Shown here: in pieces, positions 2,171 through 54,584 of the stretch
How the letters are laid out: the number at the start of each line of letters is the position of its first letter
How positions within the stretch are numbered: the stretch's first letter is position 1
Source of the DNA: a virus
Virus record (IMG/VR): IMGVR_UViG_3300028393_001967
DNA length: 64,000 nt
Direction: 5' to 3' (one strand)
Position numbers and translations under genes: made by a program
The notes under the pieces: model-generated
Database searches by the model: none
Told to the model about the DNA's origin: nothing
What the model saw: the letters and a program-made list of their open reading frames with translations, nothing else

Positions 2171-2452
2171 ATGAAAATTGTTAAACTTAATCGCAGATAC
2201 ACAGCATACAAGAGTGGTTTTACCCACGCCTTACGTTTCACTACCTGGGGCAAAAGTGCTGGTGAAATTGAACAGTTTTTAACAAAACGTTACGGGCATC
2301 AATATTCATGGCAACGAGAGCGAGGCCAGTGGAGTTCAAATTTTGGATCTCCACCACGTGGTGAAACTGTACGACCATATTGGATCAACCTCAAGAATGA
2401 AGCGGATATTTCAATGATTCTTTTGAGCGGAAATTATAAGGTCAACCGTTGA
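2171..2452 (+). CDS. Hypothetical protein
   Basis: ORF directly behind promoter. Confidence 0.7.
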   Translation: MKIVKLNRRYTAYKSGFTHALRFTTWGKSAGEIEQFLTKRYGHQYSWQRERGQWSSNFGSPPRGETVRPYWINLKNEADISMILLSGNYKVNR

Positions 2453-2477
2453 CAACAGTTTTATTTCTTGTTATAAT
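2449..2477 (+). promoter_or_regulatory. sigma70-type promoter
   Basis: TTGACA-N17-TATAAT. Confidence 0.9.
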
Positions 2478-4351: not shown

Positions 4352-4816
4352 ATGCCTAAGTGTTATCAATTGATTGGTGTGCCAGGTGCAGGTAAAAGCA
4401 CTTGGGTTGCTAATCAAGAATGGGCTAAAGATTGTGCATACATTTCTACTGACCATCACGTGGAACGACAAGCTGAACTTGAAGGTAAGACCTATAACGA
4501 AGTGTTCAAAGACTTTATGCCCATTGCTGTAAAGTTGATGGCAGACGATGTTGTCAAGGCCCGTGAAGCAGGCAAGGATATCATCTGGGACCAAACTAGC
4601 ACTAGCATTGCTAGTCGTACTCGCAAGTTTAATATGTTGCCTGACTATGAACATATTGCAGTGGTGTTTAAAACACCTGATGAAGAAGAATTGAATCGTC
4701 GTTTGGCAAGCCGCCCGGGTAAGAATATCCCCAAGCACGTTATGCAATCAATGATTGCAGGTTGGGACGAACCTGAATTAGATGAAGGCTTCAAAGAAAT
4801 TTGGTATGCATCATGA
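4352..4816 (+). CDS. Polynucleotide-kinase-like P-loop kinase (AAA_33)
   Basis: GVPGAGKST, STD, IIWDQT, lid RLASR. Confidence 0.75.
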   Translation: MPKCYQLIGVPGAGKSTWVANQEWAKDCAYISTDHHVERQAELEGKTYNEVFKDFMPIAVKLMADDVVKAREAGKDIIWDQTSTSIASRTRKFNMLPDYEHIAVVFKTPDEEELNRRLASRPGKNIPKHVMQSMIAGWDEPELDEGFKEIWYAS

Positions 4817-4962: not shown

Positions 4963-5228
4963 GCACTGCTAAAACTGTAAAAGCACCAATTGAACATAAG
5001 GACAAATTGGGCCGTATTATCAAGGTTGGTGATGCTGTTTGCTATCCTTACCACAATAATTTGGAGTTTGGTACCATTAAAAAACTTAATAACAAAATGG
5101 TTAAAGTTTGGGAAGTTGGTGCTCACAGTAAATGGTATACTGGTGCCAACAAATATCCACAAGATGTGGTCATTGTAGAAGGTCCTGAAGTAACTCTTTA
5201 CTTGCTTAAAATGAATATGAAGTCTTGA
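4959..5228 (+). CDS. Hypothetical protein (KOW/SH3-like)
   Basis: DKLGRIIKVGDAV pattern. Confidence 0.65.
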   Translation: MSTAKTVKAPIEHKDKLGRIIKVGDAVCYPYHNNLEFGTIKKLNNKMVKVWEVGAHSKWYTGANKYPQDVVIVEGPEVTLYLLKMNMKS

Positions 5229-5253
5229 CATTTGTTCAAGATTACTGTATAAT
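5225..5253 (+). promoter_or_regulatory. sigma70-type promoter
   Basis: TTGACA-N17-TATAAT. Confidence 0.9.
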
Positions 5254-5983: not shown

Positions 5984-6298
5984 ATGAGTTTTCTTATTGT
6001 TTTGTTTTTCTTATTGTTTTTTGTGGCTATTATTGTGGCCGTTATTCGAAGGAGTGAGCCTGTGATGTATAATGATTTTGACGATGAAGAAGTAACGCAT
6101 ACTACCGTTACAACTACTACCACAACTACTGAGCAACCTGCTCCGTTGGTTGCCACAGTTGGTGTTATTAATTCTTATCAAAAGTCGGGTAGTGCACAAT
6201 GGTATGTAATTGATCCAGTGGACAAAGAAGAAACCGCCGTGGATGCTAACGACGACTATTACCGTGATGCTGGTGGAAAGATTTGGGATTTGCAGTAA
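5984..6298 (+). CDS. Hypothetical membrane-anchored protein
   Basis: N-terminal TM, Thr-rich linker. Confidence 0.7.
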   Translation: MSFLIVLFFLLFFVAIIVAVIRRSEPVMYNDFDDEEVTHTTVTTTTTTTEQPAPLVATVGVINSYQKSGSAQWYVIDPVDKEETAVDANDDYYRDAGGKIWDLQ

Positions 6299-6858
6299 TG
6301 CCGTGGATACAAAATGTTGCACTGAGCGACATTAAACGAGGGTTACATATTAACCCAGGTGAGAACTCTATGTTGATCCAGATATGCGATCCAGATATGG
6401 AATATCCCGCCCCCTTGTATACCTTTAAGGAAGTCCATCAATTTAAATTTTTGGACATTGAAGAAAATGACAAATGCTTGGATGAGTCAATGCGATGCAG
6501 TCACAAACAGGCTGCTGAGTTGGCTCAACTGTTGCAACACGCATTGGCTAACCATATGAACGTTATCGTTCATTGCCACGCAGGTGTTTGTCGTAGTGGT
6601 GCAGTTTGTGAAGTTGGTGTTATGATGGGCTTTGATGACACTGAAGTTTTCCGTAGCCCTAACCTGTGTGTCAAACATCGTATGATGAAGCACTTGGGTT
6701 GGACCTATGATGAGAATGAGCCCCACACTATCAACGGTGTAACAACTGAGTTTGGGATCATTCTCCCTAAGGAAATCGACTGGGCCAATGATAATGAAAA
6801 AGTTTTCACATTGGCCAAAGAAAGAAAAGCTCGTAGAGAACGAGAAGGCGATATCTAA
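6298..6858 (+). CDS. Cys-based (PTP/dual-specificity-like) phosphatase
   Basis: HCHAGVCRS = HCxxGxxRS; FLD acid loop; TAATG-coupled start. Confidence 0.85.
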   Translation: MPWIQNVALSDIKRGLHINPGENSMLIQICDPDMEYPAPLYTFKEVHQFKFLDIEENDKCLDESMRCSHKQAAELAQLLQHALANHMNVIVHCHAGVCRSGAVCEVGVMMGFDDTEVFRSPNLCVKHRMMKHLGWTYDENEPHTINGVTTEFGIILPKEIDWANDNEKVFTLAKERKARREREGDI

Positions 6859-7742
6859 TGAGTATCTCATTGATGAGTGTTAGCAATATCAATCACGAGC
6901 TTACAGAGTTTTCTATCAATAAAAGCTGTGAGGCAAAGAAGTTTGATGAAGTGTTGGTATTTTCAGATCGGGTCCTGCCCAATTTGAAGTATCAACACAC
7001 CTATCACGATATTGCAACTTCCATCGCACCGTATGATACGACTACGATGAAGCCAGTACCGCTAACATTGGATATATACTGTGACTTCTTGTTTAAGCAT
7101 ATGGGCCCATATATCAACACTGAACACGTGATCAGTATTCAGTATGATGGGTTTTGCGTCAATCAAGATGAATGGACTGACGAGTTCTTGGATTATGACT
7201 ACATTGGATCTCCTACTCATAAAAAGTGGTATCCATTGGCCAATAGTTTGATACAACACGAAGTCTATGATAGTTCGCCCAATGGATGGTACAATGGTGG
7301 TGGTGGCTGTAGTCTGCGTAGTAAGAAACTTATTACTGCACTACAGGATCCTGAGATCAGTGTATTCATTTCAGATAAGAATTATCAACGTTGTGAAGAT
7401 TGGAGTATCTCTGTTCGATACAGGGAGTATTTGGAAAAAGCACACGGTATTAAATTTGCCCCGCTTGATCTGTCATTGAAGTTTAGTACTGAATTACTTA
7501 CAGGATTGAACTTTAGTTTTGGATTTCACGGTTGGGAAAACATACCCTTGTTTTTTACAGAAGAAGAATGTATTTGGTATATTGAGAATTTACAAAAAGA
7601 AAATCTCAAACGTGGTCATTATATGACACGCAGATTTGCGGCAATGTGTTGGATCCAAAACTATCACCAAGCGTTGGCACATTTAGATCACGTATTAAAT
7701 GAAATAGATCAAAATATTAGGAATAATAATTATTCAAGATGA
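6858..7742 (+). CDS. DUF5672-like putative glycosyltransferase
   Basis: IQYDGF, YDYIGSP, NGGGGCSLRSKKL, ED, FGFHG. Confidence 0.7.
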   Translation: MSISLMSVSNINHELTEFSINKSCEAKKFDEVLVFSDRVLPNLKYQHTYHDIATSIAPYDTTTMKPVPLTLDIYCDFLFKHMGPYINTEHVISIQYDGFCVNQDEWTDEFLDYDYIGSPTHKKWYPLANSLIQHEVYDSSPNGWYNGGGGCSLRSKKLITALQDPEISVFISDKNYQRCEDWSISVRYREYLEKAHGIKFAPLDLSLKFSTELLTGLNFSFGFHGWENIPLFFTEEECIWYIENLQKENLKRGHYMTRRFAAMCWIQNYHQALAHLDHVLNEIDQNIRNNNYSR

Positions 7743-7751
7743 AAGTAATAA

Positions 7752-8003
7752 ATGTTTGAAGTGATTGGTAAAGAAGAAACATTCAAAGTTTTAACACTGA
7801 CTGAGGCGATGAATCTTGCCAAGCACATGAATGAGTTTGTGACTATCAAAGGTCAAGACTTTGAAATTGTAGGTATGTTTGGTGTAGACAGTATTCGTGA
7901 TGGTGTTTGTCCAGATGGTGTTAAATACGATTGGAACAAAACCAGCCGAATAGGCGCATCAAAAAGAAATGAAAGGGTAATTGAAAATGAAGAAGATTAT
8001 TGA
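7752..8003 (+). CDS. Hypothetical protein
   Basis: ORF, operon packing. Confidence 0.7.
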   Translation: MFEVIGKEETFKVLTLTEAMNLAKHMNEFVTIKGQDFEIVGMFGVDSIRDGVCPDGVKYDWNKTSRIGASKRNERVIENEEDY

Positions 8004-8661
8004 GATTAGAGCTGCCGAAGGTGGCGAAGATAGTAAACTGTTTGTACGAGATCTGGCACAAGCCTATATCAAGTTTGCACAAAGCCGGGGCTGAACTACC
8101 CGCCTGATAGGTGAGTACCAAGGCGAACTTCATTTAGAAGTACAGGGCACTGACCTATCCGGCTTAAAGAATGAACCTGGAGGACATCGCATACAGCGTG
8201 TTCCACCCACCGAAAGGAAAGGACGTGTTCATACCAGCACAGTGACCGTGGCCATCATAGATGACACTGATCGTCCAAGAGTTGTGGCTATACCAGAAAC
8301 TGATTTAAAAATCGAGTGGTACAGCGGCACTGGTGCTGGAGGTCAGCACCGTAACAAGCACCAAAATTCCTGCCGAATAACTCATATTCCCACTGGAGAA
8401 GTGGCCACTGCACAGTGCCGTAGTCGTCAAAACAGTTTGGATCAAGCTAGGACAGATATACAGCAAAGAGTTGACAAACTGACTAAAACCAGTTATAATA
8501 CACACATAGCAAGTGATAGGCGGCAACAGGTTGGGTCGGGTATGCGTGGTGATAAAATTCGTACTTACCGTTTCCAAGATGATGTTGTCAAGGATCACTT
8601 AACAGATCGTACAGCCAGTGTTAAAAAGGTATTGGCTGGTAATTTTGATTTACTTTGGTAA
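7987..8661 (+). CDS. RF1-like peptide chain release factor lacking domain 1, with in-frame TGA at 8092-8094 (readthrough or pseudogene)
   Basis: MKKIIEIRAAEGGEDSKLF...AQSRG*TTRLIG...NEPGGHRIQRVPPTERKGRVHTSTVTVA...GAGGQHRNK...RITHIPTG...KIRTYRF...VKDH; single frame, 224 codons. Confidence 0.9.
8471..8499 (+). promoter_or_regulatory. Consensus sigma70 promoter inside the release-factor gene
   Basis: TTGACA-N17-TATAAT followed by ACACACATA as at 2449. Confidence 0.8.
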
Positions 8662-8673
8662 AAGGAGTTTAAA

Positions 8674-9693
8674 ATGACTCGTAAAATGGCAACTATCCGT
8701 AAGATTGATGCACTGCGTCCTATTGAAGGCGCTGATGCAATTGAATGCGCTATCGTAGGTGGATGGACCTGCGTGGTAAAGAAGGGTGAATACACTGCTG
8801 GTGATCTGGCTGTGTACTGCGAAATTGATTCTTGGATTCCACATAACATTGCACCATTTCTATCAAAAGGAAACTTTCCACGTGTTTTCAATGAAGTCAA
8901 GGGTGAACGTCTGCGTACTGTAAAGTTGCGTGGTCAACTGTCACAGGGCCTTCTATTGGACCGATACACTGTTCTAGACAAGGTTGGTGAGATTTACGAA
9001 GGTATGGATGTTTCTGAACTGCTTGGCATCACCAAGTATGAAGCACCCATCCCCGCAGAACTTGCAGGTGAAGTCAAAGGTATGTTCCCTTCAGTGATTC
9101 CGAAGACTGACCAAGAGCGTATTCAAAACTTGTCAGCAGAGTTGGCGGAGTGGAAGACTGAAAATCTATCTTGGGAAATTACAGAGAAACTCGATGGGTC
9201 TTCAATGACTGTTTATGTTATTGATGGTGAAGTTGGTGTTTGCTCACGCAACCTTGACCTCAAGCGTAATGTTGATAATTCATTGTGGCGTGCCGCTATC
9301 CGGCACGACTTAGAAGAAAAGTTGAAGATTGCAGGTGGTAACATTGCAGTCCAAGGTGAACTGATTGGAAACGGCATTCAAGGTAACAAGTACCAAATGC
9401 GTGATCAAGACTTTTATGTTTACGACATTTATGACATTGATGCAGGTCGTTACTACACTCCTGCTGAACGAGTGGCGTTTGTAACTGAACACAAGTTGAA
9501 TCACTGCCCTATTTTGATCTCTAATGATCGTTTGGGCGGCGGCGAAACTATTGAAAATCTGTTGAAGTACGCTGAAGGTAATTCAGAATTGAATCCCAAG
9601 CAAGAGCGTGAAGGACTGGTGTTCAAGTGTAACGAAAAGTCTGTGAGCTTCAAGGCAATTTCTAACAAATTTTTATTAAAGAGTGGTGAATAA
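8674..9693 (+). CDS. RNA ligase, DRB0094/Rnl2-like family
   Basis: N-terminal RKMATIR..IEGADAIE, TEKLDGSS (motif I), QGELIG, REGLV, FKAISN. Confidence 0.9.
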   Translation: MTRKMATIRKIDALRPIEGADAIECAIVGGWTCVVKKGEYTAGDLAVYCEIDSWIPHNIAPFLSKGNFPRVFNEVKGERLRTVKLRGQLSQGLLLDRYTVLDKVGEIYEGMDVSELLGITKYEAPIPAELAGEVKGMFPSVIPKTDQERIQNLSAELAEWKTENLSWEITEKLDGSSMTVYVIDGEVGVCSRNLDLKRNVDNSLWRAAIRHDLEEKLKIAGGNIAVQGELIGNGIQGNKYQMRDQDFYVYDIYDIDAGRYYTPAERVAFVTEHKLNHCPILISNDRLGGGETIENLLKYAEGNSELNPKQEREGLVFKCNEKSVSFKAISNKFLLKSGE

Positions 9694-10238
9694 TGAATAC
9701 TTGGGTAACAAGTGATTTACATTTTGGACATAAGAACATTATGTCCTTTTGTCCTGTATCGCGGGCAAGGTTTCGTAATGACGTAGACTATATGAACGAG
9801 CAAATGGTCAAGGAATGGAACGACCTGATTGCTCCTGAAGATACAGTGTACATATTGGGTGATGTGGCATTCTTGCCTGCTCAAAAGGCAGCAGAATTTA
9901 TGAACCGCTGTAACGGCACTAAGATCTTAGTTGAAGGTAATCACGACCGTAAGACACTGAACGATCCCACATTCCGCAAGTGTTTTAAGGAAGTACACCA
10001 ATACCTGCGATTGGTCTATGATGGCACTGTTGTATGTATGTTTCATTATCCAATTCAGGAATTTGATCAACAACATCGTGGCTCTGTTCACTTACACGGT
10101 CATCTTCATGGAGGTGTTAGTGGAATCGAGCACTACAGAGTCCTTGATGTAGGTATGGATGCAACTGGTATGATTGCGATCTCGATGGATGATGCTGTTG
10201 CACAGGCCCTAAAAGGCCAAATCAAAGGGCATCACTAA
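9693..10238 (+). CDS. Calcineurin-like metallophosphoesterase
   Basis: SDLHFGH, LGD, GNHD, HYP, HGHLH. Confidence 0.9.
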   Translation: MNTWVTSDLHFGHKNIMSFCPVSRARFRNDVDYMNEQMVKEWNDLIAPEDTVYILGDVAFLPAQKAAEFMNRCNGTKILVEGNHDRKTLNDPTFRKCFKEVHQYLRLVYDGTVVCMFHYPIQEFDQQHRGSVHLHGHLHGGVSGIEHYRVLDVGMDATGMIAISMDDAVAQALKGQIKGHH

Positions 10239-10239
10239 T

Positions 10240-10476
10240 ATGATCACTGATATGATCGACCGTGAGATCAAGGTAGATGACTTTGTTGTATTTTACAGCA
10301 ACATCTACCGTGTCAAAAGTTTGGGAAAAGAGTATCCCGCCAATTCCGGACGAGGTCGAATTAAGATAAAGATTTGGAATGGCGGTGCTACCAGTCGCCC
10401 AGTTGAAAAACATTCCAAAGATGTAGCTCTTTTGGACCAAAATCAAGTATTGGTTTGGATGCTAAAACAAGGTTGA
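10240..10476 (+). CDS. Hypothetical protein
   Basis: DMIDREIKVDDFV, similar pattern to 4959 ORF. Confidence 0.65.
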   Translation: MITDMIDREIKVDDFVVFYSNIYRVKSLGKEYPANSGRGRIKIKIWNGGATSRPVEKHSKDVALLDQNQVLVWMLKQG

Positions 10477-10501
10477 CACTCCATTAAAACTCTGCTATAA
10501 T
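10473..10501 (+). promoter_or_regulatory. sigma70-type promoter
   Basis: TTGACA-N17-TATAAT with TG extension. Confidence 0.9.
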
Positions 10502-10534
10502 ACACTCATAGCAAGTAACTAATTGGAGTAGTAT

Positions 10535-10732
10535 ATGATGATTGTAGCAAAATTCAAAGATAAGATTGTACAAATTGTCAAGGTACAAGAATCAGTTATG
10601 TTCTCCGAGGACAAGGGCTGGATCTTTATCTGCTTTGACTTTGACAAGATCAACCGTCGTCGTGAACAATTTAAATGGGTCAAGGCCAGCAAAACTCGTT
10701 TTGAGTGGGTTCGCGAATTTGTAGGAGAATAA
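10535..10732 (+). CDS. Hypothetical protein
   Basis: GGAG RBS. Confidence 0.7.
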   Translation: MMIVAKFKDKIVQIVKVQESVMFSEDKGWIFICFDFDKINRRREQFKWVKASKTRFEWVREFVGE

Positions 10733-10733
10733 T

Positions 10734-11021
10734 ATGCGTGGAAAATACAGCCCAACCGTAAACCGTGCGTACATGAATGATCAGGAATGGTGGACAAAAT
10801 ATTCAGGATCAGACAAACCATCTGAAGAATATGTCCAGTATGATCCTGAAGGTTACGACAGTTACGGTTACAATAAAGACGATAAGGATCGTGCTGGTAA
10901 CTATGAGCACGAGTATTACAAAAACGACAGTGCTCATCCAGGATATGCAGATTACAATATCGCATACGATGACGCAGACAGTGAATGGGGTTTTGATGGC
11001 GTGAAGCCAGTAAGGATTTAA
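10734..11021 (+). CDS. Hypothetical Tyr/Asp-rich protein
   Basis: AGGAG RBS. Confidence 0.7.
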   Translation: MRGKYSPTVNRAYMNDQEWWTKYSGSDKPSEEYVQYDPEGYDSYGYNKDDKDRAGNYEHEYYKNDSAHPGYADYNIAYDDADSEWGFDGVKPVRI

Positions 11022-11022
11022 A

Positions 11023-11934
11023 ATGAACAAAGATGAATTGAAAGAGTTTGTATTGGCTAACCCACGGTTGGTCAGTATGAAGCCTGCTGGCGATGGTATC
11101 TATGTGCTAAAGTATTCCAAGCGAGTCTTCTACGATGACTTGTGGAATGACTTTCTTGAAGAATGTCGCGGCACAATTGTGGATGCTGACTTCAATGTAG
11201 TATCACGGCCATTTACAAAGATCTATAATTTCCGCGTAGAAGCCAATGCTCCTGTGTTGACTGATGATACTCCTGTAACTGCTTATCGTAAGGTCAACGG
11301 ATTTATGGTGGCAATGACTTGGCATAACAACGATATCCTAGTGAGCACCACTGGTTCCACTGCTAACGACTATGTTGACTATGCTAAAGAAATGATGCTG
11401 AAGCACTCCTGCTGGGCTGACTGGCAAATGGCAGTGCTGGGTGCTCGAGGTCATACTTTGATGTTTGAATGTGTGCATCCAAGCGACCCACATATCATTG
11501 TAGAAAAGACTGGGATGTATTTCTTAGGCTGGCGTGAAAATGCCTGGAACTCTCGAGTTCACGGCTTTGGTTGTGATGAGGTGTGGCGGATATTTGCTGA
11601 AGATACGTTAAAGTGTTATGCAGTAGAATCTTATCACATGACTGTGGGTGAGTTGGTAGCAGAGTCTAAAAAGGTTCGCCACGAAGGATTTGTGGCCTAT
11701 ACTGTGAACGGTCAAGCGTTTAAGATCAAGAGTCCATACTACTTGACCAGCAAGTGGGTTGCTCGTAATCCTCGCACTGACAAGTTAGTGAATATGGAAG
11801 CCGACATCAAGAAAAACCTCGATGAAGAATACTATCCACTAGTTGACGCGATACGTGCTAATATAGTAGAATATACTGCAATGGATGAACAAGCACGCCT
11901 AGCCTGGGTGCGTAACTATTTGGAGATGGTATGA
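11023..11934 (+). CDS. T4 Rnl1-like RNA ligase
   Basis: ECRG, SRPFTKIYN, KVNG (motif I), FE, EGFV, KIKSPYY. Confidence 0.8.
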   Translation: MNKDELKEFVLANPRLVSMKPAGDGIYVLKYSKRVFYDDLWNDFLEECRGTIVDADFNVVSRPFTKIYNFRVEANAPVLTDDTPVTAYRKVNGFMVAMTWHNNDILVSTTGSTANDYVDYAKEMMLKHSCWADWQMAVLGARGHTLMFECVHPSDPHIIVEKTGMYFLGWRENAWNSRVHGFGCDEVWRIFAEDTLKCYAVESYHMTVGELVAESKKVRHEGFVAYTVNGQAFKIKSPYYLTSKWVARNPRTDKLVNMEADIKKNLDEEYYPLVDAIRANIVEYTAMDEQARLAWVRNYLEMV

Positions 11935-12245
11935 ACGAACGAATTAAAAAACTTGCTGAACAGGCAGGCGTAAGTATTTTACTAGGTGACTTGACGGATG
12001 AAGATACCGGCAAAGTAGAGCGATCTAGACTAGAAATATTCGCCGAGTTGTTGATTAGTGAATGCTGTGCGGCATTGTGGACTGAAGAATGCCGCACAAG
12101 TGATTTGGCATTTGAAGAAGTTAAACGCAACGAGGCCAAGATTAAACAACATTTTGGAATTGATCCAGACAAGATTACAATAGAGATGTTGGACAGAACG
12201 ATTGCTTGGTGTGAGCAACAACAAGCGGAGAAACGGGATGAGTGA
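11931..12245 (+). CDS. Hypothetical protein, MNERI paralog family
   Basis: MNERIKKLAEQAG...FAELLISEC...IKQHFG. Confidence 0.75.
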   Translation: MNERIKKLAEQAGVSILLGDLTDEDTGKVERSRLEIFAELLISECCAALWTEECRTSDLAFEEVKRNEAKIKQHFGIDPDKITIEMLDRTIAWCEQQQAEKRDE

Positions 12246-34773: not shown

Positions 34774-37700
34774 ATGTCTAATTCAGAAACAACTAAGGCC
34801 GTACCGTCTTCATTAAAAAAAATAGACCTAGTAGATAATGCAACGGGATTGATGCCCACAGCAATACCATCTGCAGGAACAGTGACCCCGCCACAGATTG
34901 CTACTGCCTATGGGATACCTGCAAGTGATGGTGCAGGAATCAAAGTTGCCATTATTAGCTTAGGGGGCGGCTTCCTACAAAGTGATCTTAATAAATCATT
35001 TGCAGATTTACGAACTGCTGGACTTATTAATTCAACAGTTGTTGCTCCAACCATTAAACAGGTGTTAGTAGATGGCAGTAGTGGAAATTTTTATAGTAAT
35101 ATAAATTACAGCGGAGAAAATACCGTAGATATCTTTTGCGTGGCTACCATGGTGCCAGCTGCTGATATTACAATTTATATAGGACAGAATAGCTACATTG
35201 GGTGGCGAAATGTAGTTGCCCGTGCAATCAGCGACGGAAATCACATACTTACTATTAGCTGGTGTACAACTGATGCTACGTTTTTAGAATCTACACTTGC
35301 CACGGCGGCTGAAAATAAAATTGCAGTATGTGTAGCTTCTGGCGATTGGGGATCAACACTTGATGGATATCCAACATTAGAGACGATGTATCCAGCTTCA
35401 AGCCCTAACGCAATATCCATTGGCGGCACACATTTATATTTGAATCCAGATAATACTCGAGCAAATGAAACAGATGATAATAGAGATCCCAGTTTTGGTA
35501 ACGGCTGGGGCGGTGGTGGTGGTGTTAGTGCATTATTTTCACGACCTAGTTGGCAAGCTGGATTATATTATACACCTATTATTAACGGCGTAACTGGCAA
35601 TCCAACCGTTTTATCAATGCGTGGTGTGCCAGATATTTCTGCACCAATGAATGCATATTCTTTGTATTTTAATGGCAGTGTGACAGGATACGGGGGGACT
35701 AGTTTAGCAAGCCCCACAGTTGCAGGTATACTTGCCCGTATGCAAAAATTAACAGGAATACAGCGATCCAGTGCTGAATATAATGCGATATTCTATGCTA
35801 GTACTGGATCGTTCTTTGATATTACTGTAGGAACAAACAACGATCAAATTACTAGTGGATATGCTGGTACAGCAGGTTGGGACGCCGTCACCGGGTTAGG
35901 TCCTCCCATTGGTACAAGTTTACTAGATAGTTTAACCCCACCAATATCTTATCCCGTAGACCAAACTGTATTAATTAACTCTACTAATAATTTAATCACT
36001 ACTAATATTACTGGTGTATATACATCTATTTCTACAACCAATCCTTCAAACGGTACAATATCAGTTTCATTAGGCAAACATCTTTACTATACTCCAGACT
36101 TAAATTTTTCAGGTTTTGATAATTTTACTTATTCGGCAGTTAGTCCAGCAGGAAATTCATCTTTTAGTAACATATTAATACGTGTAGTATCCCCTACACC
36201 AGAAGTCCCAGTTACATTAACTTCAGAAGTAACGGTATTATCAAATTCAAGTAACAATATTATACAATTAAGATCTATCAATAATCCAACATCGTTTAAT
36301 ATTGTGTCTGCGCCCAACTACGGCATTGCTACAATTTTAGGCCAAGAATTAGTATATACACCGCGGTATAGTTATTACGGGGCAGACTATCTACAATTTA
36401 CTGCATCTAATTCTTATGGAACTTCAAATATTAGCACAATATTAATAACAGTGCTTCCTGGAATTCCAACTACATCCATTTCAAGTCAAACTGTTGCATT
36501 TAATTCCTTCAATACTCCAATTAATTTAATTGTAGATGGAATTTATACAAACATTGGTATCAGTGTCTCCCCGTCACACGGTACAGTAAATATTTTTGGT
36601 ACAAACATATCTTATGTGCCAGATCCTCAATATCAAGGTTTTGATAGTTTTAAATATTATGTATCAAATGTTTCCGGACATTCAAACAGCTCTACAGTAT
36701 TTTTAAATGTTGCAGTTCCTGTAATTGTTGCATTACCAAGCTCAGGAGAATTAACAAAGGGAGTAGTTAATACATCATATCCGCCAATAACCTTATCTGC
36801 ATCTGGAGGGTTGGCCCCATACAGTACAGCAGTAATCAAAGGATCGTTACCCCCAGGAATTACATTAAATTCAAATGTTATAAGTGGTATTCCAACTAGG
36901 GCAGGTTTATATCAGTTTACTATTGCAATTACAGACAGTAATTCCCCCAATCATTTTACAGTATACAACAATTATACCCTATCAATTTACGCATCTGCAC
37001 ATACCAACAAATTTCAATGGTTTACAAATCCGGGTCTCTTAACTACCGCAACTAGTGGGGTATTCACCAGTACTATAGTGGAGGCCTCGGACATCAATGC
37101 CACATATAAATTATTAGCAGGTACATTGCCGCCAGGTCTTACATTTCAATCAAATGGATATATTTCTGGAACGCCAACACCAGTAATTAATTTAGAAAGA
37201 CATAAATTTGTAGTTAGAGCATCTATTTTACAAACAATAATAGATAGTACGTTTATTATTGATGTTAATGCTGTAAGTGCCCCAATTTGGTCATATGGGA
37301 CTAATCCATTTGAATTAAGAACAGTTGACAATAATATTTTTATTGATCAAGAATATGTTAATATTCCATTAATTGCTACCCCACCTACAATTGCCCCTAC
37401 AAATTATCCAATTACTTATAAATTATCATCTAATTATAATACGTTACCTAGAGGATTAACTATATCATCAAATGGCGTTTTATCTGGATATTTGTCAACT
37501 GACACTAACCCAGGTACACTTGATAGATATACATTTTCAGTAACAGCTAGTAACAACAATTATTCCAGTACTCAAACATTTATTATGCAAGTGCAGAATG
37601 TATATAGCAATTTAAATCAAATTATTACTCCTATATTTGCAAATCCATCGTTTTTAGGCGTTTTTAGCGATCGAGAAAATCAATATATTCCAGTAACTGC

Positions 37701-39015
37701 ATATGATCCATACCCAATACTTGGTCCTATAACTTATACTACTGGTACAAATACTGTCCTACCATCTGGGTTGAATTTAGATTCCAGTACAGGTTTTTTG
37801 TATGGATATGTTTCCACACAAACTGATTATTTGGTAACTTATCCCGTAAGTATAATTGCAACCAAAAAAAATTCACGCACTGGGGTAAGCACTATTGCCA
37901 AAAATACATTTACATTGACAATAGTACATAAAGATTTTGATAAAATAAATTGGATCACACCCGAAGATTTGGGAACAATTATAAATGGAACGCCCAGTAC
38001 ATTAAAAGTAGAAAGTACACAAACTTCAAATATATATCCATTACAATATGGGATTGATTCTGGTAAATTACCCGACGGATTAACCCTATACCCTGATGGA
38101 AATATAATTGGTACTCCTATTTCCAGCGGAGTATATACTGCTACTATTATTGCTAGTCCAGCACCATACGGGTTCAATTCAGTTAAACCTGATACTATTA
38201 ATTTTCCTTTTGAATTAAATCTGCGCACATTCAAACTAACCGTAATAGACGCAGCTACGCCCTATACAAACATATATGTAAAACCATTACTAAGTATTGA
38301 AAAACGAAACGAATACAATAATTTTATTACAAATACCGATATGTTTCCACCCAAGTTATTGTATCGAGCTAATGACCCCAATTTTGGGGTGCAGAAAGAT
38401 CTTAAAATGTATTTAGAATATGGCATACAAAAATTTATAAGTGCTGCAAGTTATGCACCTGCATTAGAACGTAATTTTTATAATAGATCATTTAACTATG
38501 GAAATATTAAATCACTTACTACCTTAGACAATGCAGGAAACCCAATTTATGATTTAGTATATGTTGAAATAGTGGATTCATTAGATAATATTAGTTCTGA
38601 AATAAAACCACTGCCATTGGTTGCTACCACGTCAACTAATAGTGGTGTTACGGTTACCTTTCCAGATGGCGGCGGTGGTGCCAATATTGGCCCGTGGTTC
38701 CCCAGCGCCCCTAAGCCATCATTATATCCTAGTAGTATTCAAAATATGAGGAAAAATTTGGAATCAGTTGCTACTGTAAACCCCGAAGTTGCACCACTGT
38801 TTGTAAAAACTGCAACTGCCCTTGGCTTAGGATGGTTAAATATTGTGGTACTATGTTATGCATTGCCTGGAAAAGGTTTTAGGATTGTTAATAAACTTAA
38901 AACTTTTGATTTTAACCATTTTGAGTTTTATATAGATCGTATTACGATAGAAAGTACATTAGCTACCAAAACTATAGAACCAGTATCCTTAATATTTCCA
39001 AGGAAAACAATTTAA
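34774..39015 (+). CDS. S53 (sedolisin/kumamolisin) protease fused to Ig-like repeats; probable virion/baseplate protein
   Basis: ENTVD (Glu/Asp), ASGD, RGVPDIS, GGTSLASP, GWDAVTGLG; YTP..F.G.D.F.Y and LP.GL....G.ISGTP repeats. Confidence 0.85.
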   Translation: MSNSETTKAVPSSLKKIDLVDNATGLMPTAIPSAGTVTPPQIATAYGIPASDGAGIKVAIISLGGGFLQSDLNKSFADLRTAGLINSTVVAPTIKQVLVDGSSGNFYSNINYSGENTVDIFCVATMVPAADITIYIGQNSYIGWRNVVARAISDGNHILTISWCTTDATFLESTLATAAENKIAVCVASGDWGSTLDGYPTLETMYPASSPNAISIGGTHLYLNPDNTRANETDDNRDPSFGNGWGGGGGVSALFSRPSWQAGLYYTPIINGVTGNPTVLSMRGVPDISAPMNAYSLYFNGSVTGYGGTSLASPTVAGILARMQKLTGIQRSSAEYNAIFYASTGSFFDITVGTNNDQITSGYAGTAGWDAVTGLGPPIGTSLLDSLTPPISYPVDQTVLINSTNNLITTNITGVYTSISTTNPSNGTISVSLGKHLYYTPDLNFSGFDNFTYSAVSPAGNSSFSNILIRVVSPTPEVPVTLTSEVTVLSNSSNNIIQLRSINNPTSFNIVSAPNYGIATILGQELVYTPRYSYYGADYLQFTASNSYGTSNISTILITVLPGIPTTSISSQTVAFNSFNTPINLIVDGIYTNIGISVSPSHGTVNIFGTNISYVPDPQYQGFDSFKYYVSNVSGHSNSSTVFLNVAVPVIVALPSSGELTKGVVNTSYPPITLSASGGLAPYSTAVIKGSLPPGITLNSNVISGIPTRAGLYQFTIAITDSNSPNHFTVYNNYTLSIYASAHTNKFQWFTNPGLLTTATSGVFTSTIVEASDINATYKLLAGTLPPGLTFQSNGYISGTPTPVINLERHKFVVRASILQTIIDSTFIIDVNAVSAPIWSYGTNPFELRTVDNNIFIDQEYVNIPLIATPPTIAPTNYPITYKLSSNYNTLPRGLTISSNGVLSGYLSTDTNPGTLDRYTFSVTASNNNYSSTQTFIMQVQNVYSNLNQIITPIFANPSFLGVFSDRENQYIPVTAYDPYPILGPITYTTGTNTVLPSGLNLDSSTGFLYGYVSTQTDYLVTYPVSIIATKKNSRTGVSTIAKNTFTLTIVHKDFDKINWITPEDLGTIINGTPSTLKVESTQTSNIYPLQYGIDSGKLPDGLTLYPDGNIIGTPISSGVYTATIIASPAPYGFNSVKPDTINFPFELNLRTFKLTVIDAATPYTNIYVKPLLSIEKRNEYNNFITNTDMFPPKLLYRANDPNFGVQKDLKMYLEYGIQKFISAASYAPALERNFYNRSFNYGNIKSLTTLDNAGNPIYDLVYVEIVDSLDNISSEIKPLPLVATTSTNSGVTVTFPDGGGGANIGPWFPSAPKPSLYPSSIQNMRKNLESVATVNPEVAPLFVKTATALGLGWLNIVVLCYALPGKGFRIVNKLKTFDFNHFEFYIDRITIESTLATKTIEPVSLIFPRKTI

Positions 39016-39071: not shown

Positions 39072-41828
39072 ATGACCACTCGCCCAAATCTTATATCCCT
39101 GCCGCATTTAACCTTTGCTAATTCTGGCACAACTTACTTTGTTGTACAAGATTCAGGGACCGATCTTTATATTACAGTGCCTCAAGCACAAGAATTAATT
39201 TTAGGATACACACAAGTTGGTCCACAAGGAAGTCAAGGATCACAAGGATATCAAGGTGTACAGGGAACCCAGGGTAGTCAGGGATATCAAGGCGTTCAAG
39301 GAACACCAGGATCGCAAGGATCACTAGGTATACAAGGAAATCAGGGTGTTCAAGGAGCACAAGGAAGTCAAGGTATTCAAGGAGGTGCAGGATCACAGGG
39401 AAGTCAAGGTCGTCAGGGCGCTATTGGAAATCAGGGCGTTCAGGGAGATCACGGAGTTCAAGGTTCCCAAGGTTCTCTTGGTTTAGGTTATGCAGGATTA
39501 ACATCAAATACTCCAAATTTAATTAGTCTAAGTCAAAAAACATTTGTAACTAACCTAAGTTCATCAAATACTGCATTTACAGTAGGGCAATATGTAAGAG
39601 CATTTTATAGTACAGTACCAACAAATTATTTAGAAGGTATAATCACATCTTTTAGTGGAAATATTTTAATATTAGATGTTTCTATTATAGGTGGCAATGG
39701 AGGGCCGTATCCAGATGTTGGCGGGTTATGGGTATTTGCTATCACCGGATCTCCTGGTGCACGTGGTTCTCAAGGTGCGCAGGGTGTTCAAGGAATTCAA
39801 GGTGTTCAAGGATATCGAGGATCAGACGGTGTTCAAGGAGCACAAGGAGCCCAAGGTATACAAGGAGCCCAGGGATATCAAGGATATCAAGGCGTTCAAG
39901 GGGCACAAGGTATACAAGGAGCAATTGGTGCTCAGGGACTTCAGGGCGTAATAGGCGCACAAGGAAGTCAGGGCATTCAGGGATCTCGAGGCGCACAAGG
40001 TGTTAGTGGCGCTCAAGGACCTTTGGGGCCTTATCAAAGCGGCCCTCAAGGTCCTGCCGGCCGTCAAGGATCACAGGGATTTCAAGGAACACAGGGTTCA
40101 ACAGGCGCTCAAGGTGCACAGGGATTTCAAGGAGCACAAGGTGCACAGGGATTACAAGGAGCACAGGGATTTCAAGGAGCACAAGGTGCACAGGGATTAC
40201 AAGGAGCACAGGGAAGTCAAGGCGTTCAAGGAACACAAGGTTCTAGGGGATTCCAAGGAGCACAAGGTATTCAAGGAACACAAGGTTCTCAAGGCTTTCA
40301 AGGAACACAGGGTGTTCAAGGCACCCGTGGTGCACAGGGACCACAAGGTATCCAAGGCGGCGCAGGTTTTCAAGGAAGTCAAGGAATCCAAGGAAGTCAA
40401 GGTATTCAGGGCGACCAAGGCATACAGGGTGCCCAAGGCATACAGGGTGCCCAAGGGTTTCAAGGACCGTTAGGACCTTATCAAAATGGTCCGCAAGGAC
40501 CTGCTGGTTTCCAAGGACCTCAAGGATATCAAGGAAGTCAGGGTTATCAAGGAAGTCAGGGTTATCAAGGTGCTCAAGGAGCACAGGGAAAACAGGGCAG
40601 TACGGGAGCTCAAGGATCAGTTGGATATCAAGGAAGTCAGGGTGCTCAAGGGTTTCAAGGACCACAAGGATTCCAAGGTGCCCAAGGTGCCCAGGGATAT
40701 CAAGGGTTAGACGGGACACAGGGTTCCAGGGGAGTGCAAGGAGCACAGGGATTCCAAGGTACGGTGGGTGCTCAAGGAAGTCAAGGTTTTACTGGTAGTC
40801 AAGGAACTATTGGATTCCAAGGACCTCAAGGATATCAAGGAAGTCAGGGATATCAAGGAAGTCAAGGTTTTACTGGTAGTCAAGGAACTGTTGGTTTCCA
40901 AGGAAACCAAGGATATCAAGGAAGTCAGGGATATCAAGGAAGTCAAGGCGTTCAAGGAACACAGGGTATACAAGGGGCAATTGGTACTCAGGGACTTCAA
41001 GGAGCACAAGGATATCAAGGCGCCCTTGGTGTTCAAGGCTATCAAGGAGCAGTGGGTGCTCAGGGATTACAAGGAACGGCAGGTTCTCAAGGTGTTCAAG
41101 GAACACAGGGTGCTCAAGGATACCAAGGCATTCAAGGAGTTAACGGCGTAGGCTCACAAGGTGTACAAGGAACGGCAGGTGCTCAAGGTGTCCAAGGTGC
41201 TCAAGGTCGTCAAGGTGCTCAGGGTCGTCAAGGCTTTCAGGGCGCTGGCGGCGGTGCAGGTCCAATTGGTGGAACAAACGGACAAGTGTTATATAATTCC
41301 GCCGGTAGTGTTGCTGGATTTGCTTCTACGGACGGTGCTAATATGTCATTATATGGCAATTTAACTGTTCAAGGGGATATTACCGCATACCGCAGTGGCG
41401 GAACTACGGGCGTTATCTATCTTAATTCAGCTCAAGATAGATATTTGTACTATGATGGCTCCACCTATATATTACATACTGCTGGATTGAGCGTCGGCGG
41501 GGACATTACTTCTTCTGGTAATGTCACTGCGTATTCTGATGCTAGATTAAAAGATAATATTCAGGTTATTACAGACGCATTGTCTAAACTTTGTGAACTA
41601 CGAGGAGTAACTTATACCAGAATAGACAGTGGAATAAGACAAACTGGTGTAATTGCGCAGGATGTAGAAAAAGTTTTACCAGAAGCTGTTGTTAAACTTG
41701 ATGACGAAACTGGAACGTTGACTGTTGCTTACGGTAATATGATAGGACTATTGATTGAATCTATTAAAGAATTAAAAGCTGAAGTAGACGAAATTAAGAA
41801 AAATATTGGTTCAAATATACAACCATAA
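39072..41828 (+). CDS. Collagen-like tail fibre with C-terminal S74 intramolecular chaperone
   Basis: Long G-X-Q triplet tracts; YSDARLKDNI autocleavage motif, GVIAQDV, coiled-coil end. Confidence 0.9.
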   Translation: MTTRPNLISLPHLTFANSGTTYFVVQDSGTDLYITVPQAQELILGYTQVGPQGSQGSQGYQGVQGTQGSQGYQGVQGTPGSQGSLGIQGNQGVQGAQGSQGIQGGAGSQGSQGRQGAIGNQGVQGDHGVQGSQGSLGLGYAGLTSNTPNLISLSQKTFVTNLSSSNTAFTVGQYVRAFYSTVPTNYLEGIITSFSGNILILDVSIIGGNGGPYPDVGGLWVFAITGSPGARGSQGAQGVQGIQGVQGYRGSDGVQGAQGAQGIQGAQGYQGYQGVQGAQGIQGAIGAQGLQGVIGAQGSQGIQGSRGAQGVSGAQGPLGPYQSGPQGPAGRQGSQGFQGTQGSTGAQGAQGFQGAQGAQGLQGAQGFQGAQGAQGLQGAQGSQGVQGTQGSRGFQGAQGIQGTQGSQGFQGTQGVQGTRGAQGPQGIQGGAGFQGSQGIQGSQGIQGDQGIQGAQGIQGAQGFQGPLGPYQNGPQGPAGFQGPQGYQGSQGYQGSQGYQGAQGAQGKQGSTGAQGSVGYQGSQGAQGFQGPQGFQGAQGAQGYQGLDGTQGSRGVQGAQGFQGTVGAQGSQGFTGSQGTIGFQGPQGYQGSQGYQGSQGFTGSQGTVGFQGNQGYQGSQGYQGSQGVQGTQGIQGAIGTQGLQGAQGYQGALGVQGYQGAVGAQGLQGTAGSQGVQGTQGAQGYQGIQGVNGVGSQGVQGTAGAQGVQGAQGRQGAQGRQGFQGAGGGAGPIGGTNGQVLYNSAGSVAGFASTDGANMSLYGNLTVQGDITAYRSGGTTGVIYLNSAQDRYLYYDGSTYILHTAGLSVGGDITSSGNVTAYSDARLKDNIQVITDALSKLCELRGVTYTRIDSGIRQTGVIAQDVEKVLPEAVVKLDDETGTLTVAYGNMIGLLIESIKELKAEVDEIKKNIGSNIQP
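39216..41247 (+). repeat. 9-nt-period CAAGGN/CAGGGN collagen repeat (two blocks separated by ~39490-39745)
   Basis: Visible periodicity, with exact 45-nt duplication near 40120-40210. Confidence 0.9.
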
Positions 41829-54083: not shown

Positions 54084-54584
54084 ATGTTAAACATTGTAAA
54101 ATTTCCTGATAATATGCTTCGAGAAAAAACTGAAGAATTTGATTTTGAGAATTGTGTCTTAGATCCAGTTAAATTAGAACAGGAGCTCATAGAAACTATG
54201 TTGGCTAATGATGGGATTGGACTTGCAGCAACACAAGTTGGACTGCCTTTGCGTGTCTTTGTTATGGGACACAAGGCAACTCCTGAATTGGCACAGGCAT
54301 TTTTCAATCCAATCGTAGTAGCAACAACTGATACTATCGAAGATTTGGAAGAAGGATGTTTGAGTTTTCCCGGTATCTATGTTAATATTAAACGTCCCAC
54401 AGCAATTAAGGCTCGGTGGCAAAATAGTAAAGGTGAATGGCAAGAATCAGAATTTGACGGATATAATTGTAAATGCTTTCTTCACGAATTGGATCATTTA
54501 GAAGGCATTGTGTTTAAAGATAGGATTAGCCCCTTAAAATGGGCTATGGCAGTTAAGAAACTTAAAAATAGGAAATTTAAATAA
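54084..54584 (+). CDS. def: Peptide deformylase
   Basis: GIGLAATQ, EGCLS, HELDH. Confidence 0.95.
   Translation: MLNIVKFPDNMLREKTEEFDFENCVLDPVKLEQELIETMLANDGIGLAATQVGLPLRVFVMGHKATPELAQAFFNPIVVATTDTIEDLEEGCLSFPGIYVNIKRPTAIKARWQNSKGEWQESEFDGYNCKCFLHELDHLEGIVFKDRISPLKWAMAVKKLKNRKFK

Follow-up and report, generated by a model that had tools for sequence, protein, structure and literature searches.

Why would a phage place a stop codon inside the gene of a release factor, and what would such a factor do among genes for RNA repair? The question is raised by a reading frame in a 64,000-nucleotide stretch of viral DNA (IMG/VR record IMGVR_UViG_3300028393_001967; hereafter the window), which encodes a class-I release factor (RF) of 224 aa when the TGA at codon 36 is read through as Trp. 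The explanation towards which we lean, with modest confidence, is that of an auxiliary termination factor for UAA/UAG that is expressed early, is produced through programmed readthrough of the UGA and is encoded in a translation-maintenance island.

The RF resembles RF1 without domain 1

The gene and its upstream neighbour are the following.

7987–8661, + strand: RF1-type class-I release factor without domain 1 (Pfam, NCBIfam prfA, PPT and GGQ motifs)
7752–8003, + strand: conserved 83-aa partner ORF, its 3′ end overlapping the RF start by 17 nt

The NCBIfam prfA match to the RF covers model positions 107–333 of 347, and about 105 N-terminal residues, corresponding to domain 1, are therefore missing; because of this absence the score of 199 bits falls below the cut-off of 400. 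Similarly, Pfam PCRF is matched over positions 103–194 of 194 (E 2.8e-24), together with RF-1 at 5.7e-19. Where these matches begin bears out the first-pass annotation, which had read the gene at 7987 as an RF lacking domain 1.

What is left is closely related to bacterial RF1 (prfA). Domains 2–4 are about 39% identical to solved RF1 structures and carry the PxT motif (as PPT), the GGQ motif, the GGxE helix tip and the KIRTY switch region. The PPT and GGQ motifs are invariant, and the segments GGHRIQR(V/I)PPTER.GRVH and SGTGAGGQHRNKHQNS show no variation across 13 diverse members. The best solved relative is RF1 (PDB 2fvo, E 2.5e-42), versus 3e-6 for PrfH (9mor). Purifying selection acts on both sides of the internal stop, with a dN/dS of 0.12 upstream of the UGA and 0.10–0.13 downstream (0.10–0.13 across all segments). 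Unlike bacterial RF1, the phage RF lacks domain 1 (about 105 aa), has a frame broken by UGA, and is encoded by giant phages within tRNA arrays. Homologues from Alphaproteobacteria have another residue in place of the PxT threonine (PLG, PPN), and some family members may not be strict UAA/UAG readers.

The RF is best explained as an RF1-derived class-I factor that has lost its contact domain for RF3/L11. Codon-specific release is possible without domain 1, yet RF3 requires this domain (Baranov et al. 2006, PMC1586002).

In 62/81 loci the gene immediately before the RF is a homologue of the 83-aa ORF. We considered it as a separately encoded domain 1 and rejected it, given that Pfam and PHROG searches returned no match and its AF2 model (pLDDT 73) no significant fold match; its atlas matches are phage hypothetical clusters only.

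The internal UGA and a downstream hairpin are conserved

Two elements within the RF gene bear on its expression.

8092–8094, + strand: in-frame UGA, codon 36 of the RF, where Trp is conserved in RF1 proteins
8102–8163, + strand: predicted recoding hairpin, beginning 7 nt 3′ of the UGA

In an alignment, the UGA falls on the Trp of T. maritima RF1. TGA occupies the identical codon in 80/80 IMG/VR relatives and in 20/20 further ones (58–85% identity), and across these 100/100 the gating codon is UGA specifically, never UAG or UAA. The same internal UGA is also present in RF homologues from cultured Alphaproteobacteria, and full-length database entries translate only under TGA=W. Both alternative frames close after 4–6 codons. 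With the codon shared by 100/100 relatives, the UGA is not due to chance or decay.

The predicted hairpin has a minimum free energy of −30.4 kcal/mol (z −3.48) and 15 pairs, with 97.5% of cells paired versus 29–44% in slid controls. Five pairs are altered on both sides, and synonymous-site identity peaks at 0.7–0.82 over the hairpin, the value for the RF gene overall being 0.49. In distant lineages hairpins of different sequence recur 7–8 nt 3′ of the UGA. The first-pass annotation had taken the UGA for a damage-responsive switch; the TGA in 100/100 relatives and the hairpin uphold a programmed signal, and nothing in the analysis supports a response to damage.

Perfect sigma-70 promoters flank and enter the RF gene

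The region also contains promoter sequences that match the sigma-70 consensus.

5225–5253, + strand: perfect consensus promoter (TTGACA-17-TATAAT), preceding the gene block that continues into the RF
8471–8499, + strand: perfect promoter within the RF coding frame, directed at the genes further downstream
10473–10501, + strand: perfect consensus match with a TG extension

The window holds four perfect sites versus 0.14 expected, all on the + strand and within the first 10.5 kb. For the promoter inside the RF, 47/80 relatives have perfect hexamers at the equivalent position, with a variable spacer. This promoter accounts for a second peak of synonymous conservation in the gene, at codons 162–174, and its conservation means that expression of the downstream genes is uncoupled from the RF.

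Readthrough as a proposed gate for a probable auxiliary termination factor

We propose that the RF is expressed early, from sigma-70 promoters of host type, and that the full protein would be produced only when ribosomes read through the UGA at codon 36. Decoding would be near-cognate, most likely by a host or phage tRNA-Trp(CCA), and helped by the conserved hairpin 7 nt 3′ of the codon; insertion of Trp would return the residue that RF1 proteins carry at this position. UGA is read by RF2 only and the PPT motif is of the UAA/UAG-reading type, and RF output would therefore rise when RF2 activity falls short of demand or tRNA-Trp is plentiful. Since an RF1-type factor is unable to read its own gating UGA, it could feed back on RF2 load only indirectly, and such sensing is a model. 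The product may add RF3-independent termination capacity at UAA and UAG; UAA terminates 60% of this phage’s genes.

Phage use of leaky UGA decoding by tRNA-Trp is known from the Q-beta A1 protein, in which it extends the coat protein. For the phage RF, unlike A1, nothing functional would be made without readthrough, and Trp insertion would bring back a conserved residue. The proposed gate is also similar to the autoregulatory +1 frameshift of prfB (RF2) at an early in-frame UGA, where decoding competes with RF2. In contrast to prfB, the phage RF stays in frame 0, with both other frames closed, its stimulator is a 3′ hairpin instead of an upstream SD-like element, and its RF1-type product would not read its own gate. 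In-frame readthrough of this kind was described in 2016 as not known from RF2 genes, nor its UAG counterpart from RF1 genes (Atkins et al. 2016, PMC5009743), and our literature search found no paper describing a UGA-gated short RF. An amoeba giant virus likewise carries release-factor genes that need stop-codon readthrough (PMC5009743), but these eRF1 genes are of eukaryotic type and involve an additional frameshift, whereas the phage RF is a bacterial-type RF1 derivative.

An unlikely alternative is that the UGA and hairpin fix a low level of expression without any sensing, since an excess of a domain-1-less, RF3-unrecyclable RF1 would be harmful. In its favour, the RF has perfect consensus promoters upstream and a good ribosome-binding site, attenuation by a leaky stop is simple, and loss of RF3 recycling is expected when domain 1 is absent (PMC1586002). 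A weak ribosome-binding site or promoter would suffice for this purpose, yet UGA specifically is kept in 100/100 relatives, this is the sole stop that the RF’s motif type does not read, and a dedicated hairpin with covarying pairs persists across lineages.

The RF lies in an RNA heal-and-seal island

Five candidate RNA-repair genes surround the RF in the window.

4352–4816, + strand: P-loop (AAA_33) kinase, candidate polynucleotide 5′-kinase (Pfam AAA_33 at 8.2e-19; GAGKST P-loop; weak matches to bacterial Pnkp and phrog_505 PNK)
6283–6858 (ATG at 6298), + strand: Cys-based PTP/DSP-like phosphatase (HCxxGxxRS; VHCHAGVCRSG motif; weak Pfam matches to DSPc, Tc-R-P and PTP-SAK)
8674–9693, + strand: DRB0094/Rnl5-type ATP-dependent RNA ligase (TIGR02306 RNA_lig_DRB0094, 195 bits, cut-off 151; KLDG motif; N-terminal OB domain, PHA02142; Pfam RNA_ligase match; phrog_968 at 4e-93)
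9693–10238, + strand: calcineurin-like metallophosphoesterase, candidate 2′,3′-cyclic-phosphate / 3′-phosphate end healer (motifs DxH, GD, GNHD and HGHLH; phrog_547 at E 8.8e-52)
11023–11934, + strand: Rnl1-like ATP-dependent RNA ligase (Pfam RNA_lig_T4_1 at 3.2e-13; phrog_562 at 1e-49; KVNG motif I)

These assignments agree with the gene content and coordinates that the first-pass annotation had given for an RNA-repair module. The RF is followed on the + strand by the DRB0094-type ligase and the calcineurin-like phosphoesterase, coupled through a TAATG in which the ligase stop is overlapped by the phosphoesterase start (9693), and the Rnl1-like ligase, kinase and HCxxGxxRS phosphatase described nearby are present by Pfam matches and motifs. 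With its predicted kinase, its two phosphoesterases and its pair of ATP-dependent ligases, the RF region makes up an RNA heal-and-seal island.

Similar combinations of a kinase, phosphoesterases and Rnl1/Rnl5-type ATP-dependent ligases are seen in T4 Pnk/Rnl1, bacterial Pnkp/Hen1 and jumbo-phage repair sets. In contrast to T4 Pnk/Rnl1-type repair, the phosphatases in this phage are of calcineurin and PTP type, not HAD type. A further likeness to the jumbo-phage sets is that repair genes lie next to tRNA genes (Iyer et al. 2021, PMC7824862); that survey describes repair systems without mention of an RF.

Linkage of the RF to repair genes is facultative

Neighbours were counted within 5 kb of the RF in 81 loci, from relatives with 67–85% RF identity. 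The most persistent enzyme is the PTP-like phosphatase (72/81), followed by the phosphoesterase (51/81), the Rnl1-like ligase (25/81) and the kinase (23/81). Gene order is shuffled among relatives: the phosphoesterase is directly downstream of the RF in about 20 of the 81 loci, and the order RF–phosphoesterase–Rnl1 occurs in about 15. Only 6/81 loci have the DRB0094 ligase within 5 kb, and it adjoins the RF in this window and one other locus (L001) only. Among five complete genomes of relatives from the same lineage, three have the phosphoesterase–Rnl1 pair 64–72 kb away from the RF, and the phosphoesterase keeps next to the Rnl1-like ligase even where the RF is far away.

We also searched five complete genomes of more distant lineages, all with a UGA-gated RF, alongside a positive control. 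The PTP-like phosphatase was found in 0/5, the Rnl1-like ligase gave one marginal match (E 3.2e-4), and 1/5 has the phosphoesterase, at a distance of about 46 kb from the RF. The more general neighbour of the RF is the tRNA gene array, with tRNA genes nearby in 66/80 loci and 44–49 tRNA matches in complete genomes; this 64-kb window contains no tRNA gene.

These results bear on a second alternative, which was put forward in the first-pass annotation and which we consider rather improbable: a PrfH-like rescue, in which the RF frees ribotoxin-stalled ribosomes, the ligases and end-healers repair tRNA or rRNA, and the UGA is a damage-responsive switch. PrfH–RtcB is an established precedent (PMC9304027, PMC6514570), and PrfH with RtcB2 shares with the phage RF the absence of domain 1 (PMC1586002), a retained GGQ and nearby RNA ligase genes. 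The heal-and-seal island around the RF is genuine and its neighbourhood survives shuffling, as the counts for the PTP-like phosphatase, the phosphoesterase and the RF–phosphoesterase–Rnl1 order attest; Ro60/TROVE-like and HD genes are close to the RF in some relatives, and the Gemmobacter caeni homologue adjoins a Thg1-like tRNA-end repair enzyme. With a repair neighbour kept in most nearer-lineage loci, the RF may have some functional tie to RNA repair.

However, PrfH is defined by its own conserved, changed decoding residues and an invariant operon position downstream of RtcB (PMC1586002, PMC9304027), whereas the decoding region of the phage RF is that of canonical RF1, invariant, and the PrfH model gives 41 bits against a cut-off of 167. 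When tRNA cleavage causes the stall, the A site holds a sense codon, and an RF1-type reader should refuse it. No RtcB is present, the RF–ligase pairing is not conserved, the distant complete genomes keep the RF without repair enzymes, and the promoter within the RF gene uncouples it from the genes downstream. The RF is not tied to repair genes as in the bacterial PrfH–RtcB pair; the linkage is facultative.

The first-pass interpretation is consequently only partly supported. Its convergent PrfH counterpart does not agree with the unchanged stop-codon-reading elements of RF1, and its RF–ligase–phosphoesterase triad, surveyed for synteny, proved nearly unique to this window. The conserved linkage to repair genes that it expected stands for nearer relatives and fails in the distant complete genomes and where the pair is far removed.

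In the auxiliary-termination model, the island would serve translation maintenance, comprising in relatives a 44–49-gene tRNA array and, in this phage and its nearer relatives, the heal-and-seal kit as well (kinase, two phosphoesterases, Rnl1-like and Rnl5-like ligases). The repair enzymes would most likely act alongside the RF, mending tRNAs that have been cleaved. RF and ligases would share a theme and a neighbourhood and would not form an obligate two-step machine.

UGA is otherwise an ordinary stop

A very improbable third alternative is that phage tRNA-Trp makes UGA partly sense late in infection, the RF1 upholding termination at UAA and UAG, as in the ‘Jade’ phage proposal. TGA-recoded phages have been reported with RF1, TrpRS and a suppressor tRNA (Borges et al. 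preprint, 10.1101/2021.08.26.457843), and tRNA-Trp(CCA) is common among the phage tRNAs of relatives, mostly with a U11:A24 pair that mimics the Hirsh UGA suppressor. Against this, TGA terminates 35/97 window genes, 18 of the 35 as ATGA overlaps, no other long ORF in the 64 kb is split by TGA, structural genes included, and no UCA-anticodon tRNA occurs among roughly 750 phage tRNAs examined. TGA is an otherwise ordinary stop in this phage.

That the UGA encodes selenocysteine is hardly credible: a UGA closely preceding a conserved hairpin is the layout of a bacterial SECIS element, but ARAGORN called no tRNA-Sec in any locus, codon 36 corresponds to a conserved Trp in RF1 proteins, and the hairpin begins 7 nt 3′ of the UGA, with sequence and register varying between lineages.

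We note that the UGA-gated RF is carried by giant phages.

A release factor of RF1 type without domain 1

The release factor (RF) encoded in the window is 224 residues long when an in-frame TGA at its codon 36 is read through, and homology to release factors extends on both sides of that codon. A small ORF precedes it and is translationally coupled to it.

7752-8003 (+): 83-aa upstream ORF, whose 3' end overlaps the RF start by 17 nt
7987-8661 (+): RF gene, with ATG at 7987, in-frame TGA at 8092-8094 and TAA at 8659-8661

Pfam PCRF matches the RF only from profile position 103, followed by RF-1, and the NCBIfam RF1 (prfA) model covers it over positions 107-333 of 347 only; domain 1 is therefore absent, as the first-pass annotation had proposed. 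The score on the RF1 equivalog NF001859 is 199 bits against a cut-off of 400, the full four-domain architecture not being reached. The likeness to PrfH claimed in the same annotation does not hold up. In fact, the PrfH equivalog TIGR03072 gives 41.1 bits against a cut-off of 166.65, over the GGQ domain only, and the best match among solved structures is Thermotoga maritima RF1 (E 2.5e-42), compared with E 3e-6 for PrfH (PDB 9mor). An alignment of 13 diverse family members reveals an invariant helix-tip GG(E/D)D, GGHRIQR(V/I)PPTER.GRVH and GGQ segment. PxT (as PPT) and GGQ, in the RF1-like domains 2-4, are both present and invariant across the phage family.

Two features define PrfH: conserved changes in these very decoding elements, and an operon, invariant in its make-up, that it shares with RtcB (Baranov et al. 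2006, PMC1586002). Domain 1 is absent from both PrfH (RFH) and the RF, but the RF keeps PPT in place of the RFH-specific decoding residues, and where PrfH is coupled to an upstream RtcB, the RF has the coupled 83-aa ORF. The RtcB family gave no hit among the RF neighbours scanned. Judged by its sequence, the RF is an RF1 derivative and not a PrfH. Domain 1 is dispensable for codon-specific release and needed for RF3 action (summarised in Baranov et al. 2006, PMC1586002), from which the RF would be expected to be active but RF3-independent.

The 83-aa ORF is conserved in 62 of the 81 near-lineage loci (the window and the relatives closer to its RF), and the residues G, D, PDG, Y, W and K are invariant in its product. 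That product does not resemble domain 1 and hits no Pfam or PHROG family, its AF2 model found no significant PDB match, and an atlas search returned phage hypothetical clusters only, marking a phage-only family. A faint likeness of the model to Dmd, a phage antitoxin (E 3-8), was discarded as evidence.

A conserved in-frame UGA at codon 36

A first IMG/VR scan with the RF detected 264 relatives, and codon 36 is TGA in all of the best 80, which have 67-85% identity and come from contigs of up to 364 kb. A second scan, seeded with a divergent member, detected 477; among these, 20 new loci (58-73% identity) have TGA at codon 36 in 20/20 and no other in-frame stop. The UGA is thus fixed in 100/100 giant-phage relatives examined, out of the 477 detected. 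The dN/dS ratio of the gene is 0.12 in the 35 codons that precede the stop and 0.10-0.13 in those that follow. This conservation, together with dN/dS of about 0.1 on both sides, rules out a pseudogene or a sequencing error. Past the UGA, the +1 and -1 frames stay open for only 4 and 6 codons, respectively, while RF homology runs on in frame 0; only in-frame readthrough can therefore yield the full RF. In the alignment to T. maritima RF1, the TGA falls exactly at the Trp of a "...KGW" segment. Full-length entries in a large protein database occur only where gene callers used code 4 on short contigs ("with_TGA=W").

TGA is a normal stop in the window: of 97 crude gene calls, 35 terminate at it, 18 of these in ATGA stop-start overlaps, and TGA interrupts no further long ORF anywhere in the 64 kb. 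Use of code 4 across the whole phage is ruled out on both counts. A role for the RF as a code-switch helper is a lesser rival to the reading developed below.

Regulated recoding in a release-factor gene has a textbook case in the prfB frameshift. Both genes have an early in-frame UGA; however, prfB needs a +1 frameshift, whereas the RF continues in frame 0. Readthrough of an in-frame stop was unknown in bacterial RF genes as of Atkins et al. 2016 (PMC5009743).

Scanning one genome per prokaryote species reveals homologues outside the phage contigs, 47-54% identical, which likewise lack domain 1 and have TGA at codon 36. One, in the cultured alphaproteobacterium Gemmobacter caeni DSM 21823, is part of a 20-tRNA array on a 446-kb contig, which may be a phage, a plasmid or an island; beside it are genes for a SIR2 protein and a Thg1-like enzyme of tRNA-end repair. 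To test for a related jumbo phage, this genome was searched with the Terminase_6C family and with the terminase protein of a jumbo phage, and neither gave a match. Another cultured alphaproteobacterium, Pararhizobium sp. BT-229, has a homologue, as do Sphingomonas and Sphingobium MAGs. In the proteins of G. caeni and Pararhizobium sp. BT-229, other residues stand in place of the PxT threonine (PLG, PPN). Among GenBank phages, megablast with window positions 7700-12000 gave no match and tblastn found distant RFs only (<41% identity), so that the GenBank phage collection holds no cultured close relative.

A conserved hairpin 3' of the UGA and candidate decoding tRNAs

In the ten codons after the UGA, synonymous-site identity is 0.7-0.82, against 0.49 for the whole gene, and a long fold begins 7 nt after the stop.

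8102-8163 (+): hairpin, -30.4 kcal/mol, z -3.48

RNAalifold recovers this hairpin from 60 distinct sequences of the window's lineage, provided that the alignment window reaches +77 nt and is confined to a single lineage; short windows or mixed lineages gave no structure. In the pair count, 97.5% of cells are paired, compared with 29-44% with slid partners. Five pairs are altered on both sides, and the covariation score is 0.214 against at most 0.081 in controls. Hairpins of different sequence likewise begin 7-8 nt past the UGA in the distant lineages, one distant sub-lineage having its hairpin in another register. The gene therefore carries the hallmarks of readthrough (a conserved stop, purifying selection downstream, suppressed synonymous variation and conserved 3' structure), and on these signatures the UGA is predicted to be a programmed one.

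No suppressor tRNA was found: none of the approximately 750 phage tRNAs in the fetched loci has a UCA anticodon, and the window has neither a tRNA gene nor an Rfam hit. Selenocysteine insertion, a lesser rival for which a hairpin after the UGA is present, finds no tRNA-Sec called in about 100 loci, and the register of the hairpin varies between lineages. tRNA-Trp(CCA) is common in the fetched loci. We note that most of these phage genes (inspected at L014, L029, L030, L034, L046, L061, L063 and L081-L083, all loci of RF relatives) have U11:A24 in the D stem, as does the Hirsh UGA-suppressor tRNA, and a few have U11:G24 or C11:G24. ARAGORN also calls tRNA-like genes with four-base anticodons (tttc, tacc) at L083 2533-2607 (the same as L055) and at L030, which could be frameshift-suppressor-like tRNAs or miscalls.

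RNA-repair genes and tRNA genes around the RF

The first-pass annotation had placed the RF in a set of RNA-repair genes, and each member is as it described.

4352-4816 (+): AAA_33 P-loop kinase, upstream of the RF
6283/6298-6858 (+): PTP-like Cys-phosphatase with HCxxGxxRS, upstream of the RF
8674-9693 (+): DRB0094/Rnl5-type RNA ligase
9693-10238 (+): calcineurin-like phosphoesterase, with its ATG in a TAATG overlap with the stop of the ligase
11023-11934 (+): Rnl1-like ligase

The DRB0094 ligase scores 195.3 bits on TIGR02306 (cut-off 151.15) and combines an N-terminal OB domain (PHA02142, 1.9e-29) with a KLDG motif I, as expected of Rnl5/DRB0094. The Rnl1-like ligase has a KVNG motif and scores 50.5 bits on Pfam RNA_lig_T4_1 (cut-off 28.3) but 40 against a cut-off of 242 on the T4 RnlA equivalog, and is therefore a member of the T4 Rnl1 family rather than an orthologue.

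Across the 81 near-lineage loci, the neighbour genes listed below share the orientation of the RF and occur in heavily shuffled order.

Genes within 5 kb of the RF in the near lineage (loci of 81)
PTP-like phosphatase: 72
Small upstream ORF: 62
Phosphoesterase: 51 (directly downstream in about 20)
Rnl1-like ligase: 25
Kinase: 23
HD_4 protein: 16
Ro60/TROVE-like protein: 7
DRB0094 ligase: 6

The order RF, ligase, phosphoesterase, on which the annotation had built its module, occurs in this window only, and the adjacency of RF and ligase recurs only in its closest relative (L001). In the five complete near-lineage genomes, the phosphoesterase and the Rnl1-like ligase lie within about 1-3 kb of each other, and in three of them the pair is 64-72 kb from the RF. 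Wherever the two occur, they are about 0.5-3 kb apart, and they look like the real conserved heal-and-seal unit. Sites of the pair in complete related genomes include 219.4-222.2 kb in G001, 214.2-218.7 kb in G002, 134.5-136.6 kb in G005 and 95.8-98.0 kb in G012.

None of the window's repair genes lies within 6 kb of the RF in the 19 distant-lineage loci. Its neighbours there are HNH endonucleases, NUDIX proteins and M16 peptidases, with peptide deformylase (2), SmpB (1), Ro60 (1) and an RNA ligase (1). Of five complete distant genomes, none (0/5) has the PTP (positive control: 5/5 near-lineage genomes), the Rnl1-like ligase gave one marginal hit, and the phosphoesterase is present in one, about 46 kb from the RF. 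The RF-repair neighbourhood is real but of short reach, and the linkage is thematic and specific to one lineage.

Co-oriented tRNA genes surround the RF in 66 of 80 loci (656 in total), and five near-complete genomes of 320-364 kb have 44-49 tRNA matches each. It is the tRNA array, rather than the repair genes, that travels with the RF; the 64-kb window is unusual in that it has no tRNA gene. Some of the related genomes have three tRNA-Lys genes directly after the RF (just downstream of it at L023, L025 and L027). PrrC and PARIS are nucleases that target tRNA-Lys.

Promoters of the island

Perfect sigma-70 promoters (TTGACA-17-TATAAT) number four in the window, where chance predicts 0.14; all lie within its first 10.5 kb and are directed towards the genes.

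2449-2477 (+): perfect sigma-70 promoter
5225-5253 (+): perfect sigma-70 promoter
8471-8499 (+): perfect sigma-70 promoter, inside the RF ORF
10473-10501 (+): perfect sigma-70 promoter

This excess suggests that the island is probably read early, by the host polymerase. The hexamers of the promoter inside the RF ORF are perfect at the same place in 47 of 80 relatives, with a varying spacer, and appear to constrain the RF residues that they encode (V-D-K and Y-N); the embedded promoter accounts for a second peak of synonymous conservation in the gene. Its position also makes the genes downstream independent of RF transcription or translation.

Interpretation

The best-supported reading of these sequences is that the RF is an auxiliary termination factor of RF1 type, RF3-independent and made by programmed readthrough of the UGA, and that it would belong to an early island for translation maintenance, which also holds tRNAs and, in some lineages, RNA repair enzymes. 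Among release factors, UGA is read only by RF2, so that the gate belongs to the other release factor and should open if the demand for RF2 outruns its supply or if tRNA-Trp is abundant. The RF product could then take over at UAA, the stop of 60% of the phage's genes.

We tentatively suggest, as a possibility that we ourselves hold to be rather unlikely, that the UGA, hairpin and RF1 domains form a trans-acting sensor of UGA-termination capacity in the infected cell, joined to an effector that would sustain phage termination through an RF3-independent factor. The capacity measured would be RF2 activity or the integrity of the decoding centre, and host shut-off or an attack by ribotoxins could lower it; the circuit would run beside the tRNA supply and tRNA repair of the same island. 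If true, the cassette would control a release factor through a circuit that has no described counterpart in cells.

The rescue-and-repair machine of the first-pass annotation, a less likely alternative, retains the missing domain 1 and the repair genes nearby; the canonical RF1 decoding elements, the facultative linkage to the repair genes and the promoter inside the RF gene all weaken it. Loss of domain 1 with ligases nearby does not make a PrfH analogue. That the UGA is a simple attenuator of RF expression is a lesser rival to the auxiliary-factor reading.

Huge phages and recoded phages are reported to carry RF1 and RF2 genes (PMC7162821; preprint 10.1101/2021.08.26.457843), and jumbo phages RNA repair sets (PMC7824862); our literature search found no paper on a domain-1-less RF1 gated by an in-frame UGA. 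The predicted readthrough design, simpler than the prfB frameshift and unreported from bacterial RF genes as of a 2016 review, would be fixed in 100/100 giant-phage genomes examined and present in elements of cultured Alphaproteobacteria. Recoding research gains a natural, predicted UGA-readthrough cassette with a defined hairpin, and the findings suggest that phages monitor or supplement termination, beyond tRNA supply.

Other features of the window

Three long ORFs lie further downstream.

34774-39015 (+): 1413-aa ORF with no PHROG family match
39072-41828 (+): 918-aa collagen-repeat tail-fibre protein, at a local GC peak (0.466)
54584-56854 (+): 756-aa ClpA/Lon-like AAA+ protease ATPase (phrog_4871, E 1.5e-247)

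The ClpA/Lon-like protein shares 42-44% identity with proteins of Pseudomonas phage PA5oct-like jumbo phages and of Sinorhizobium phage Phosso.
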